Below are positions 15,841-56,160 of a stretch of DNA of 56,160 nt, one piece after another. The notes under the pieces were generated by a model. The model did not search any database and was not told the origin of the DNA. It saw nothing but the letters and a program-made list of their open reading frames with translations. The translations under genes and the position numbers were made by a program. This DNA comes from Thelocarpon superellum (taxonomy: Eukaryota), in assembly GCA_026025795.1 (NCBI GenBank), contig JAPEUG010000074.1:1-56160 (forward strand), in the 5' to 3' direction. Each line of letters opens with the position of its first letter. Position 1 is the stretch's first letter.

Positions 15841-15956
15841 GTAAGTTTTCTTTCACCCGCCTCCGCCTAGGCAGACAGCCTTCACCGCCGGCCTTGTCGC
15901 AGTCCACGCTGGCTCTCACCCTTGCTCACGGTGGGCAACGCTAATACATCTCGCAG
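15841..15956 (+). other. 5' UTR intron of HSP90
   Basis: GTAAGT donor, GCTAAT branch and CAG acceptor, ending 51 nt upstream of the ATG. Confidence 0.75.
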
Positions 15957-16007
15957 ACCCCGATCTTCACCTCTTCCACGTCTCACTCATCGCCGACCAC
16001 CGCCATC

Positions 16008-18179
16008 ATGCCTGCCGGCGAGACGTTCGAGTTTCAGGCTGAGATCTCTCAGTTGCTCTCGCTCATCATCAACACCGTCTACTCCAACAAAGAGATCTTC
16101 CTGCGAGAACTCATCTCCAACTCCTCGGACGCCCTTGACAAGATCCGCTATGAGGCGCTGTCCGACCCCAGCAAGCTCGACTCGGGCAAGGATCTCCGGA
16201 TCGACATCATCCCGGACAAGGAAAACAAGACGCTCACCATCCGTGACACTGGGATCGGCATGACCAAGGCCGTAGGTATTCCTGACCTCCGCGTGCACAC
16301 ACCGTGGCTCACTCATCGATAGGACCTCGTCAACAACCTCGGCACCATCGCTCGCTCCGGCACGAAGCAATTCATGGAGGCCCTCACGGCCGGTGCGGAC
16401 ATCTCGATGATTGGCCAGTTTGGTGTGGGTTTCTACTCGGCCTACCTGGTGGCGGACAAGGTCACCGTGGTCTCGAAGCACAACGACGACGAGCAGTACA
16501 TCTGGGAGTCGAGCGCCGGTGGCACCTTCACCCTCACCCAAGACACCGAGGGTGCGCCGCTCGGCCGCGGCACGCAGATGACGCTCTACCTCAAGGACGA
16601 GCAGACGGACTACCTCAACGAGAGTAAGATCAAGGAGGTGGTCAAGAAGCACTCGGAGTTCATCTCGTACCCCATCTACCTGCACGTGCTCAAGGAGACG
16701 GAGAAGGACGTGCCGGACGAGGACGAAGAGGAGACCACGGCCGAGGAGGACGACGAGAAGAAGCCCAAGGTCGAGGAGGTGGACGATGAGGAGGAAGAGA
16801 AAAAGGAGAAGAAGACGAAGAAGGTCAAGGAGAGCAAGATCGAGGAGGAGGAGCTCAACAAGACCAAGCCCATCTGGACGCGGAATCCGCAGGACATCAC
16901 CGCGGAGGAGTACGGCAGCTTCTACAAGACGCTCTCCAACGACTGGGAGGACCACCTGGCCGTCAAGCACTTCTCGGTCGAGGGCCAGCTGGAATTCCGC
17001 GCCATCCTGTTCGTGCCGAAGCGCGCGCCCTTTGACCTGTTCGAGACGAAGAAGACGAAGAACAACATCAAGCTGTACGTGCGCCGGGTCTTCATCACGG
17101 ACGACGCGACGGACCTCATCCCGGAGTGGCTCAGCTTCATCAAGGGTGTGGTGGACTCGGAAGATCTGCCGCTGAACCTGTCGCGCGAGACGCTGCAGCA
17201 GAACAAGATCATGAAGGTGATCAAGAAGAACATCGTCAAGAAGACGCTCGAGCTCTTCGCCGAGATCGCCGAGGACCGCGAGCAGTTTGACAAGTTCTAC
17301 ACCGCCTTCAGCAAGAACATCAAGCTCGGCATCCACGAGGACGCGCAGAACCGGCCGGCGCTGGCCAAGCTGCTGCGCTACAACTCGACCAAGTCGGGCG
17401 ACGAGGTGACGTCGCTAACAGACTACATCACGCGCATGCCGGAGCACCAGAAGCAGATCTACTACATCACGGGCGAGAGCCTCAAGGCCGTGGCCAAGTC
17501 GCCCTTCCTCGACTCGCTCAAGGAGAAGGGGTTTGAGGTGCTCTTCCTTGTCGACCCGATCGACGAGTACGCCATGACGCAGCTCAAGGAGTTCGACGGG
17601 AAGAAGCTGGTCGACATCACCAAGGACTTTGAGCTCGAGGAGACGGCCGAGGAGAAGACGCAGCGCGAGGCGGAGGAGAAGGAGTACGAGGGGCTGGCCA
17701 AGGCGCTGAAGGAGGTGTTGGGCGACAAGGTGGAGAAGGTGGTGGTGAGCCACAAGCTGATCGGCTCGCCCTGCGCCATCCGCACGGGCCAGTTTGGCTG
17801 GAGCGCCAACATGGAGCGCATCATGAAGGCGCAGGCGCTGCGCGACACGTCCATGAGCTCCTACATGTCGTCGAAGAAGACGTTTGAGATCTCGCCCAAG
17901 TCGCCCATCATCAAGGAGCTCAAGAAGAAGGTGGAGGCGGACGGCAAGGATGACCGCACGGTCAAGTCTATCACGCAGCTGCTGTTTGAGACGTCCCTGC
18001 TCGTGTCGGGCTTCACCATTGACGAGCCGGCCGGTTTCGCCGAGCGCATCCACAAGCTGGTGTCGCTGGGTCTGAACGTCGACGAGGATGCCGAGACGTC
18101 GGAGGAGAAGGCCGAGGCCGAGGCCGAGGGCGCCACGGCGGAGGCCACGACGGAGAGCGCCATGGAGGAGGTCGACTAG
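16008..18179 (+). CDS. HSP90: Cytosolic Hsp90 chaperone
   Basis: Exons 16008-16271 and 16323-18179. Motifs [31 protein letters not shown] and C-terminal MEEVD. Codon usage is strongly GC3-biased. Confidence 0.99.
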
Positions 18180-48561: not shown

Positions 48562-49700
48562 TCAGTAGCCGCTGGCGCCGACCACGCCGTGGGTCGAGTA
48601 ACCCCCTCCCATCTGCTGCTGCGCCGGCTGTGGTGGCGCGGCGGCAGCTTGGGGGTAGGTCGAACCTTGGTGAGCCTGTTGGTTCCGCAACCGCGTCAAG
48701 TCGGCAAACCATGGGTGGAGCAGGGCGTCTTTGGCGCTGATGCGATCTTCGGGCTTGAGCTGCAGCATGTGCGTCAGGAGATCGAGGCCGAGCTGGTCAA
48801 TCTGCGGCAAAATACGGTGGAGATCCTGCGTCGCGAAGACGGGGAAGTTGGTCTTGTACTCGGGGAATTGGGAGATGCCGCGCCACGATCGCTCCGATGG
48901 CGTGCCCATGAAACGGAAGATGCGCTGCAGTTGGTCTTCGTTGGTCGTGCCAGGAAACAAGGGTCGTCCGGTATACATCTCGGCCATGATACATCCCGCG
49001 GACCAGATGTCAATGCTCGTGTTGTACGTGCGGCTGCCCAGCAGCACGTCGGGCGCACGATACCACAGCGTCACCACCTCGTTGGAGAAGGTGTTGACGG
49101 GGATACCAAAGGCACGGGCCAGGCCAAAGTCGGCCAACTTCAGCTGGCCCTTGTTGTTGATCAGGAGATTTTGTGGCTTGAGATCGCGGTGGAGGACGCG
49201 GTTGTCGTGGCAGAAGGCGATGCCCTGCAGGAGCTGATGCATGAACGACTTGATGGTGACATAGTCCAGTTGACCGCGGTCGCCTCGCGAGTCCATGTAC
49301 TTCTTCAAGTCCTTGTCCATGTATTCGAAAACGAGCATGAGTTTGTTCTCCGTGTGGATGACATCGTAGAGCGACACGATATTCTCATGCTTGAGCTCCT
49401 TCATCAGCGAGATCTCGCGGATGGCCGTGGATGGCGTCCCTTCTTCCGAGTCGAGATGGATCTCTTTCAGTGCAACGAGCTCGCCGGTCTGCCGGTTTCG
49501 CCCCTTGAAGACCTACACCACGTCAGCGGGGTCCAGCCGAAATCGCGTGCATCCTCTTGGGACGCACCGTCGCATAGGTGCCCTGTCTGTGAATTAGCGT
49601 TGCCACCGGCCGGAGCATCTCGGCTGCCCGAGAGGAGAAGGCTGCGCACCTCTCCCAGCTTCTCGAGCTGCTGGAACGAGCTTGGATGTCGTTTATCCAT
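48562..49700 (-). CDS. PHO85: Pho85/PhoA cyclin-dependent kinase
   Basis: Exons 49700-49650, 49582-49568 (15-nt micro-exon GTYAT) and 49512-48562. Motifs [58 protein letters not shown]. Confidence 0.97.
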
Positions 49701-52705: not shown

Positions 52706-54840
52706 ATGACTATTTGCTATCGTGCACTTCACATTCAAGTGATCTCTGACCCCTCGACAACTCAACGTGTTGTCGTCTTCCATCTTCACAGTCCCCGTCG
52801 TTCAAAAGAAGTTAACCGTACGTGTCGTGAGGTTCCTCTCCTTAAGGCCATCCATGGGCTTTACCCAACTTCCGCTCCGTTGAACGCAATGGAGTCCACC
52901 AAGCGTAATGAGGCAGCCCGGCCACGCTCTCCTGACCTTGTATTCCGCCGCGCTCCGAGCGGTGCCCTTCCACCACGAGGTTCCTCACCAGCGTGGGGAG
53001 GCCACTCATCTGACCGTGGCGCTGATGACATGGATCGCGTTGACTCGTGGCAACCGAATCGCTTCTATCACCGGCGATCAAGGATGAGAAAAGTGCGAGA
53101 GCAGCGGCAAGCACACCATTCCAATACGGTAAGACGTCCAGAAAAGGACAATTCTGGACGAGCCAAGCTCCCGGGATCAATCCTTTGGCCTGCCCGTACC
53201 CCAAGTCCTCCCGATGTGATCATGGGCATCCACCCGATCTCTCCTCGATCCGCTCTCCCGACAGTCGCCACAAGTGTGGCCCCACCTTCCGGAGAGGCAC
53301 CACACGGTCAACAAGGGCTACAGGCACCTCAGTCCTTCGATATGGCGTCCCCGCGTCCCCAGGACCATGCGTCAGAAGACACTCGACTGCAGCCTCTGCC
53401 GCCGGAACACCCACTGAAGGAACTGTACGAAGAAATGGTGCAGACGCGGGTCAGCCGGCGACTCGAGTGGGAATCATACAAGGCGATGCTAGGGCCCGAG
53501 GCAAACAACCCGGCCAACTACGACGTGCAAATGTGGGGGCAGGAAGAAAAGGTCGCCAACAACGCCATGGCGGAGCTCCAAAGCCAGATCCTCAAAGCCG
53601 AGATGCAACTTCCGGCCGGCCTTCTCGGTCTTCCTTCTGATAGACATGTCCGTCGCGGAAGAGGCGTGACGCATCGCCATCGGGAATCTTCGCCACCGAA
53701 GAGAAAGGTCACATACGGGAGGGGTCGCGAGATCCCATACGAAAGACAGGCACGCGGCCGCGGGCGTCTCCATCAGTCACGTCCATCTCCAGACATCCGA
53801 GGACGGCGCCCAAGAGACGAGCGAGTGATGTGGACGACCGAGCGGAGGGAGGAAAGCGTGCGGCAGTGGTTCCAGAAGATGAACGCGTCGGCGAGCCGAT
53901 CCGCGTCCCCGCCTCAAGTCGTCATCGATCGATCGACAGACGGATATGACGAGTCTGGCAATGGCGATTCTGTGCGAGATGAGGGCGTGCATGGAGATCT
54001 GGACATCATCCCCTCGCTCGCCCACTGGACCAGCGACGACGAGCGAGACTTCCAAGACGCCGAGGCAGAGCGCGAACGGCAGAGGCAGGAGGCGGCGGCC
54101 ATGTGGTCGGAAGTTCAATCTAACGCAACAGTTTTACCTCGACCTCCCACACCACGGCAAGACAATCACGTCACGAATCGGCCCGCCGAACCAGGGTTCG
54201 TCTTGTAGTCTGACTCAGAGAGCGGCATGGAGAGCGACACGGAGATCACGATTGAAAGCACTCCTCGGCGCGATCCCGATCCTGATCCCGGTCTCAATGT
54301 ACTCGAGGTGGTCGACACGCTCGATTTCAAGGAAATGGGCATCGACGTGGAAACCGGGGATATCGGATCCGGTGAGTATCTAGATATCGACGGCATCTTG
54401 AATACAGTACGCCCCGTTCCCTCTCCACTAACGCCAAGTTCCCCACACTGGCCAACAAGTGAGGGACAGTCTCCTCGTTGCATGCAGCGTGAACACTCGC
54501 CTGCCCTGTCCCTGGCCCCGCCCCGAGGTCGTACCGACGCGTTCGAAACTAGGCGCCAGCATTCGTTTCGCGTTTTAGACGAAGAGGACTTCGAACTGGC
54601 CGACGACACATCACGCGGTAAGGCATCTTGAAACCGCCTCGGCCCGGCACGGTGGCGCATCGTCTGCGGGCTCAGCGGGGACCGTTCGGGTCACTAACTC
54701 GTCCGCAACGCACTGTGCCAGGACCACCAGAGTCATGTAGCAGGCCGCTAGAGGTGTTGCCTGGACCGAGAGCAAAGACGACAAGACGTGGCCATTTCGA
54801 CATAGATTTGAATGGCGATAGTGACGATGGATGGGGTTAG
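52706..54840 (+). CDS. Orphan low-complexity protein gene interrupted by an in-frame TAG (54206-54208); edited/readthrough gene or young pseudogene
   Basis: ORFs 52706-54208 and 54227-54631 are in the same frame, separated by one TAG. An intron at 54618-54721 (GTAAGG, CTAAC, CAG) continues the frame to TAG 54838-54840. Start is ATG 52706 or 52889. Confidence 0.6.
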
Positions 54841-55233
54841 GCCGACGGTGATGAGGAGGATGAGGACGAGGACGATATGAGAGAGTGAACTGAGAGGAGG
54901 TAGGGGGGAACCACGGAAAAGATTGCCCGGTGATTCGATCTTTCCCCCGTTCACCAGGCCGAATCTCAGGGGACTCAATCGGAATCGGATCTTCGTCGGA
55001 CGTGCTCCCATCATCACTCATGGTCGATGACAAGGTGTCGTTGCTCGTACGTGAGGATATCTGGCGCTCCCCCAAGGTGCGCGCTGAAGATTGCATCTGC
55101 ATAGGACTATATCTGCCTCCGACCCGATGTCTTGCTCAAGGGAGCACCACGATGCTGACTCCTTCGCCATAACCATATACCTTGACCTTGCTCACCGTGC
55201 ATTTCGACGCTTCTTTCTTCCCTTACATGTGCC

Positions 55234-56160
55234 TTACATCACCTGCGACGACTTAGTGACGGGAAAGCTCTTTTAAGCACCGCACTGAGACGAGGCCATA
55301 CCGAGCAGTTCTCATCAAACGCGACCCCTGTCACTTCCCCTCCGGCTCCGCGGGTGGCCTGGCGCTCCCTTAGACCAGCAGCCAATTGCGCTAGCATGCC
55401 TCTCTGTGTGGTCCGAGATCATGCCGATCGATCAATCAGCCAAACCAGCCTAACCATTCGGCGAAATCCACGCCGATTCTATTCACGTGGGGAAGGAGAT
55501 CTCTACGCACGGTGATGTAGGCATCGCGCATGCCTTGGATGAGATTAGCGGACATGTTGGACGACGCCTCAGGGGACGTGAGCCCACGTACCGCCTTGCC
55601 TCTCCACATCGTTCTGGGACGTGATTTCGTAGGAACGATGCATGCGTTTTCGGCTTCGCAAGCCATTTGCCGCCACCTGTCGATCTTCGTTGGCATCGCC
55701 GTCACCATCGGAGCCGATCTCGTCACGGCCAGCATCCTCGTCGTGGACTGGTTGTCGGCGTCCGAAGCGCACTCGGCCGCCTAACTCTAGCGACGAGTAT
55801 CCCGTAGACGTGGTGTTTGCGAGATTGACCCCGTTTCGAGCGTCATCTTGCGCCCGCTGGTCAGGGGAGAAGATCTTAATCGTGTGGTCGATGCCTGAGA
55901 CGGCCATCATGGGTTCGTAAGGGTGGCCTATCTGCGGTCAGCACCAGGAACAAGACTCTGCGCCATCGTAGACCCACCTTGAATGACATTCACCACCTCA
56001 CCATCTCCCTCCAGAATGTTGAGCAGTTCCGACGTCTTCTTATCCCAGATAAAGACGTGACCAGAGTCACTCCCGCTGACGACGTACTCGTCGTTCAAGC
56101 CGTAGAAATTGACGTCCTTCACTGTCTTGACATTGCAATGTCCCCGGTATTGCCGAGTGT
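55234..56160 (-). CDS. 3' part of a WD40 protein, DCAF8/DCAF6 (Iqw1)-like CUL4-DDB1 substrate receptor; 5' end lies outside the window
   Basis: YRGHCNVKTVKDVNFYG..EYVVSGSDSGHVFIWDK...VVNVIQG/HPYEPMMAVSGIDHTIKIFSP. Four introns in the window. The spliced C-terminus is ...DENCSVM*. Confidence 0.88.

Follow-up and report, generated by a model that had tools for sequence, protein, structure and literature searches.

The closest described systems are the premature stop correction (PSC) pseudogenes of Fusarium graminearum, which are edited by Tad2-Tad3-Ame1 (PMC10776026, PMC11087585), and OLD-ZAO of Neurospora crassa and CHE1 of Fusarium, which carry an intragenic UAG (PMC12754623, PMC11169179). 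Sexual-stage editing of mRNA has been reported in Sordariomycetes and in Pezizomycetes (Pyronema) (PMC11156358, PMC11087585, PMC5381528); neither Aspergillus nidulans nor Botrytis was reported to show it (PMC11156358, PMC5381528). Such editing is described as favoring an A in a hairpin loop, with U at -1 and a purine at each of +1 and +3 (PMC11156358, PMC5381528). Ame1 is required, its role having been gained in Sordariomycetes via a KN to MV change after duplication, and editing is reported to have originated at least twice in Pezizomycotina (PMC11087585). Of the 71 edited genes of Fusarium, 50 encode disordered proteins, 43 encode hypothetical proteins, and 6 carry two sites; both AMA1 and RID undergo editing, and the AMA1 stop was gained six times there (PMC10776026). 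Reports of OLD-ZAO come from Eurotiomycetes and Sordariomycetes and from a single basidiomycete (PMC12754623, PMC13327615). In a search of the literature outside subscription journals, we found no report of mRNA editing in Lichinomycetes or lichens, and neither lichens nor Lecanoromycetes are mentioned in the available text of PMC13431901.

The gene described here belongs to Thelocarpon superellum; a phylogenomic study puts Thelocarpon in Lichinomycetes, on a branch that splits off before the Leotiomycetes-Sordariomycetes clade (PMC12238968). The window, by which we mean the whole stretch of DNA that was analyzed, is an entire contig of 56,160 nucleotides in an assembly of 19.15 Mb and 797 contigs. 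Near its end is an ORF of 500 codons terminating GTC TTG TAG, whose coordinates, taken from a preliminary description of the window, were re-read and found to be correct. The frame does stay open past this TAG, as had been claimed, with 140 further codons until a TGA. Removal of a candidate intron at 54618-54721 would add 39 codons, leading to a second TAG at 54838-54840, 15 acidic codons, and a TGA at 54886. The features on which the argument depends are the following.

52706..54208, plus strand: ORF of 500 codons, terminated by TAG, as read from the sequence
52994..53002, plus strand: family motif 1, WGG, from the alignment consensus
53387..53608, plus strand: family core, a two-helix hairpin (residues 236-299) with 39% mean identity and pLDDT >90, from alignment and prediction
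53831..53887, plus strand: family motif 3, WT..R..SV..W...M, with predicted helix 378-394, from alignment and prediction
54026..54127, plus strand: family motif 4, WT...E..F..AEAERE, with predicted helix 443-474, beyond which no element is clearly conserved
54196..54438, plus strand: unproven candidate in-frame intron of 243 nt, with GTTCGT donor, CTAAC at 54428, and AAG acceptor at 54438
54206..54208, plus strand: first TAG, with its A at 54207 and flanks UGU-A-GUCU, outside a stable hairpin loop
54209..54631, plus strand: severed tail of 140 open codons, acidic, coding-like in frame, and predicted to be disordered, ending at TGA 54629-54631 if unspliced
54332..54364, plus strand: weak, suggestive match to the C-terminal family motif M.ID...VET.DM
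54618..54721, plus strand: candidate intron of 104 nt, a sequence pattern of GTAAGG, CTAAC, and CAG
54722..54888, plus strand: putative final exon with the second TAG (54838-54840), 15 acidic codons, and TGA 54886-54888

In layout the locus resembles PSC genes: an in-frame UAG interrupts a hypothetical protein that is disordered, coding sequence follows the stop, there are two such sites, and the annotation is split in two. The NCBI annotation divides the locus into one 215-aa and one 67-aa protein, and since it is built on the same contig it gives no independent confirmation. ATG 52889, which would yield 439 aa, seems a likelier start than the first codon of the ORF because homologues begin shortly before WGG and because the first 61 codons reduce the coding score. 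In-frame stops downstream are TGA 54886, TAG 54901, and TGA 54931. The gene is present as a single copy in the genome. Three causes of the stop were rejected: repeat-induced point mutation, given a single-copy gene with TpA/ApT of 0.34-0.54; an altered genetic code, given that ordinary genes in the window such as HSP90 end in TAG; and an overlapping minus-strand gene, given that the neighboring WD40 gene ends near 55300 and the minus frames are low-scoring.

On alignment evidence, the gene belongs to a family of mostly disordered proteins without a name, from lichen-type ascomycetes. HMMER over 1.84 billion representatives returned 29 hits (E up to 0.001), 2 from the locus itself and 27 homologues. 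The named members among the 20 of 29 hits that were looked up came from Acarospora, Loxospora, Lambiella, Hypocenomyce, Xylographa, Lignoscripta, Bachmanniomyces, Peltula, Candelina, Candelaria, and Sclerophora, with no Sordariomycete or congeneric orthologue among the clusters of those 20. A profile search gave 12 proteins, the named ones from Acarospora and Pleopsidium; a word-index search with the read-through protein gave zero matches, an exact look-up matched none of three ORFs, and no close orthologue was found by word-index, HMMER, or profile search. A profile built from the homologues alone scored residues 1-500 at 140 bits (E 8e-45). The four family motifs occur in family order, together with the hairpin core, and all lie upstream of the first TAG.

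AlphaFold2, run on 25 sequences, predicted helices at residues 236-267, 272-299, 378-394, and 443-474 and disorder elsewhere, including the entire tail, with pLDDT <50 beyond residue 474. Across the motif blocks, mean identity to the homologues is 26-39%; beyond residue 470 and past the stop it is 7-13%. Neither part of the protein has a Pfam match, and Foldseek against the PDB gave no match at E up to 0.001. An RNA-recognition motif is found in 2 of 25 aligned members (it stands at the end in some members), and none was seen in this gene. The family extends across Lecanoromycetes, Candelariomycetes, and Lichinomycetes (for example MCJ1363212.1 of Acarospora, KAI9788305.1 of Peltula, KAI9849647.1 of Sclerophora, and KAI9724837.1 of Candelaria); these members share the motif order and the helical-hairpin core with our gene, and no function has been named for any of them. 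As a separate observation, the family (P0004-P0047) is spread over lichen-forming and related ascomycetes and has a helical-hairpin core for which there is no Pfam model.

Past motif 4, the protein as terminated at the first TAG is short for its family. All 24 aligned homologues extend 111-722 residues beyond F449 of motif 4 (median 361; three short hits of 240-277 aa were omitted from this alignment as probable fragments), unlike our gene, in which only 52 residues separate F449 from the stop; read-through would give 194-244. The three homologue loci with DNA, all of them distant, are single open frames without an internal stop. No conserved Trp aligns with codon 501, in a post-stop region that aligns unreliably. 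Many homologues have the C-terminal motif M.ID...VET.DM. In a test devised post hoc, a match to it at 54332-54364 was equaled by 38 of 3000 shuffles and, among real windows, by 2 of 383. Other searches of the tail gave less: the best hit of a Gibbs profile of the tail motif was an acidic run (195 of 5000 shuffles as high), a motif HMM gave 359 of 3000 shuffles, the family HMM was also non-significant, and a short helix motif was matched by 1400 of 3000 shuffles. Judged against its relatives, the stop is premature, and the severed piece is a predicted disordered tail, which we take to be the former end of the same gene from coding signal and family length rather than from proven homology.

Coding signal was scored with a self-trained model, for which the training set was 535,292 bases of this genome, the locus excluded. 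The 136 codons after the TAG (54209-54616) scored +6.4 in frame, 27 above the other five frames, much like the last 140 codons upstream of the first TAG (+6.7, with a margin of 25). Coding signal and longer homologue tails both uphold the earlier proposal that one gene spans the TAG, the frame behind it being its tail, and that the stop is premature relative to relatives. The candidate intron at 54618-54721, also proposed earlier, does have GTAAGG, CTAAC, and CAG in place, but that intron and the exon behind it stay putative. The second exon scored as non-coding, at -13.1 in frame versus -15.7 and -19.3 in the other plus frames. Only the 15 acidic codons that had been pointed out behind the second TAG are positive (+3.2), and these are present as described. 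The suggestion that the later stops read well as Arg or Gln was not borne out, the sequence past 54889 being non-coding in frame at -27.2.

At least 136 open codons stand behind 19 of 245 stops that follow coding-like sequence; open length by itself is poor evidence. When coding-like character was added, 10 of the 245 stops had at least 100 open codons of that kind behind them. Nine of these ten were intronic when read by eye, and the tenth was our first TAG. A further 100 stops, from 205,652 bases under a stricter filter, yielded one case, which was intronic. The surveys covered about 4% of the genome. The strict filter (274 stops) overlooks the first TAG, and the 245-stop survey used a relaxed filter; on the 205,652 bases the strict filter did not flag the kinase on C139 described below, indicating that the surveys can miss real cases. 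The coding-like tail is more than chance.

Broken genes were also found among the kinases of the genome. There were 140 kinase-domain matches, of which 29 had internal stops; all 29 were read, and 26 proved to be intronic and 3 to be true lesions. One, at G000:C139:483-485 (L087, minus), is an orphan-type kinase that has a lone in-frame TAG and no intron and runs off the contig end; its TAG stands at a Trp that is invariant in five of five homologues, Thelocarpon impressellum included. Another, at G000:C196:7723-7920 (L089), has a TAG at a Glu-like site together with a frameshift, and a third, at G000:C651:5089-5571 (L134), has an in-frame TAA. A change of TGG to TAG is a signature of editing and also a common nonsense mutation. 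The C139 kinase is either a second candidate editing site or a young pseudogene. As a set, the lesions, being of mixed kind, look like ordinary decay, and they indicate that broken genes are not rare in this genome.

Our preferred explanation, held with modest confidence, is a recent nonsense mutation that left a core-intact protein. Decay had been listed as an alternative in the preliminary description, and it fits best among the readings, with the mixed kinase lesions on one side and an editing context that was not found on the other. Codon 501 would have become TAG by a single base change that arose either in this strain or in the lineage of Thelocarpon superellum. Translation would end there, and the product, some 440-500 residues in length, would retain the four clear motifs and lack only the disordered acidic tail; the loss would be mild enough for the allele to have persisted. 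As 3' untranslated sequence, the former tail would be so young that its frame and codon bias persist. The second TAG may have come first, shortening the protein by 15 residues near its end, or may be an additional lesion. If 54618-54721 is still spliced, about 410 nt past the stop, the transcript might be subject to nonsense-mediated decay and the gene might be an early pseudogene. The mutation, its age, the lack of a rescue mechanism, and any effect on the mRNA are what we infer from these features. Like ordinary nonsense alleles and early pseudogenes, the locus has a single-base route to TAG and a relic frame, in a genome with three broken kinases; unlike both, it has a spared conserved core, a product that may still work, and a relic without a frameshift.

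Several observations count against a nonsense mutation. Both stops are TAG without a frameshift, as editing predicts, and by a rough estimate decay would yield such a pair only 1 in 5 to 1 in 15 times. In coding score the tail matches the 140 codons upstream of the stop and thus gives no sign of decay. The locus is the sole non-intronic case in 245 stops, with none in 100 more, so that such relics are uncommon in housekeeping regions. Finally, the lone TAG of the C139 kinase stands at the Trp that all five homologues share, the congener among them. If a nonsense mutation is the right explanation, the locus has little wider significance: it would be a truncated allele of an unstudied gene, annotated as two, and would show that this lichen-fungal family can dispense with its tail, or is losing it, and retains the helical core.

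The preliminary description had put forward correction of the stop by A-to-I editing. Editing of UAG to UIG (Trp) at 54207, and perhaps at 54839, would occur in fruiting bodies or under stress, and only then would a protein of 640-690 aa be made; the editing enzyme would be one of two OTT_1508-like deaminases, or else Tad2-Tad3 working with some cofactor that is not the Sordariomycete Ame1. We consider this distinctly unlikely. It would explain why both stops are UAG, without a frameshift, and followed in the tail by coding-like sequence, and it would also account for the TAG at the invariant Trp of the C139 kinase. The edited genes of Fusarium are likewise mostly disordered hypothetical proteins, six of them two-sited (PMC10776026). 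The genome encodes two OTT_1508-like proteins with HAE and CxxC motifs, at the following positions.

G000:C645:27741-29406, minus strand: OTT_1508-like deaminase gene, HAE and CxxC
G000:C701:23569-24577, plus strand: OTT_1508-like deaminase gene, HAE and CxxC

Against editing, Lichinomycetes lie outside the classes in which it has been reported. Neither UAG sits in a stable hairpin (in four windows, z was +1.2 to +1.6 and 185-197 of 200 shuffles folded as well), a hairpin loop being an editing preference rather than an absolute rule, and the base at +3 is C in each case instead of the favored A or G. The U at -1 that had been offered as a pointer is present in any UAG, as is the purine at +1, and hence is no evidence. 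Two DUF726 genes were found, at G000:C282:15586-16620 and G000:C442:7425-8552, in our reading one of each DUF726 type, and that on C282 looks like an unduplicated, ancestral Ame1-family gene. It has KS rather than MV at the presumed KN/MV site, which was placed by counting from the catalytic Ser, without a Fusarium sequence and in an assembly that may be incomplete. The likely orthologues of AMA1, RID, and SPO11 are intact: no non-intronic stop was found in AMA1-, RID-, CDC20-, CDH1-, DIM-2-, or SPO11-like genes, the flagged TAGs in RID and CDH1 being intronic and the stops in SPO11 only intronic, and two SPO22 matches had no stop inside. No conserved Trp of the homologues aligns with codon 501. 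At invariant columns the C139 kinase shows 8 further private changes versus 4 in the congener, which leans to decay but is too small a number to settle the matter. With lineage, hairpin, and +3 context all at variance with known editing, and with known editing-dependent genes intact, the proposal is unsupported.

The same observations separate our gene from PSC genes, which it further differs from in having no conserved domain behind the stop and no shown homology to the 71 PSC genes; despite its PSC-like layout, neither its context nor the machinery of the genome passed the tests that were run, and hence we have not filed it as PSC. As to OLD-ZAO and CHE1, the intragenic UAG and the two OTT_1508-like genes in the genome are points of likeness. 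Unlike them, our gene has no zinc fingers and is on a different contig from either deaminase. No C2H2 zinc finger lies within ~10 kb of either OTT_1508-like gene, and no CHE1/ZAO-like TAG upstream of fingers was found in 24 finger loci, drawn from the best 30 of 33 matches. In CHE1 the post-stop part is reported to be better conserved than the pre-stop part (PMC11169179), the reverse of our gene. That Thelocarpon restores premature UAGs by A-to-I editing, here and in the C139 kinase, as a third origin, in Lichinomycetes, is a proposal that we doubt; such editing might possibly be carried out by an OTT_1508-like deaminase on non-zinc-finger targets, without the Sordariomycete form of Ame1. If true, it would place editing in a class between two known editing lineages and would partly answer a question stated as open, which classes of Pezizomycotina edit mRNA (PMC11156358).

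Splicing out of the first TAG, always or partly, with part of the former coding tail now intron, is unlikely as well. Intronization around premature stops has been proposed in the literature (PMC2586383, PMC9612004), and splicing requires no unknown enzyme: translation would continue to TGA 54629, or to TAG 54838 as a normal stop. The 243-nt candidate has a perfect CTAAC preceded by a pyrimidine run, and AAG 54459 is an alternative in-frame acceptor for the donor at 54196. The GTTCGT donor occurs in 4 of 72 introns called by machine with a noisy finder, with clear cases elsewhere in the genome, and a glutamate synthase-like gene on C1 has an intron of ~290 nt. However, the stretch that would be removed includes the strongest coding signal of the tail (54209-54388, +12.3 versus -30.1 and -15.2) as well as the weak family motif match at 54332-54364, and the branch A would lie 7 nt from the acceptor, a shorter distance than in the hand-read introns, whose lengths are mostly 44-90 nt. 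Shorter versions fare no better: the 63-nt intron suggested earlier, 54196-54258, has no branch-site match near its 3' end, and a 27-nt version (GAG acceptor at 54222) would be shorter than any intron seen.

The first TAG might instead be a consensus error or a private allele of a metagenome-assembled genome, the species having a sense codon. NCBI labels the proteins 'MAG', and the genome is in 797 contigs, but neighboring genes are undamaged where read and the second TAG would demand a second error; we regard this as very unlikely. Substitution errors are rare in a short-read consensus. The protein P0002 ends at the first TAG but derives from the same contig and hence is no independent check. 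Highly improbable, in our estimate, is a pair of genes in which a separate small ORF starts at ATG 54227, per the NCBI annotation (67 aa, with a 32-nt intron). P0003 is so annotated and this ATG has a purine at -3, but only 18 nt, in the same frame, separate the stop from it, P0003 is alone in its cluster, and homologues have such a tail within the same protein. Ribosomal readthrough of UAG by a near-cognate tRNA, giving a few percent of a long form, would suit the open, coding-like frame downstream, and it too has very little probability: UAG-UCU is not among known readthrough contexts, and there is no structure after the stop. Known contexts include UGA-CUA and UAG-CAR-YYA.

Around the first stop there are two intron-like stretches, 54196-54222 (27 nt) and 54407-54438 (32 nt), each with donor, branch site, and acceptor, in a genome where the hand-read minimum is 44 nt; the NCBI model uses the 32-nt stretch. 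On the minus strand, an ORF of 163 codons at 54611-55102 overlaps the tail behind the WD40 gene and has a coding score near zero. According to Pfam, the neighbors of the locus are a kinase at 48562-49515 (minus) and the WD40 gene at ~55300-56160 (minus), which is cut by the contig end. We take the kinase to be PHO85-like and the gene at 15900-18179 (plus) to be HSP90.
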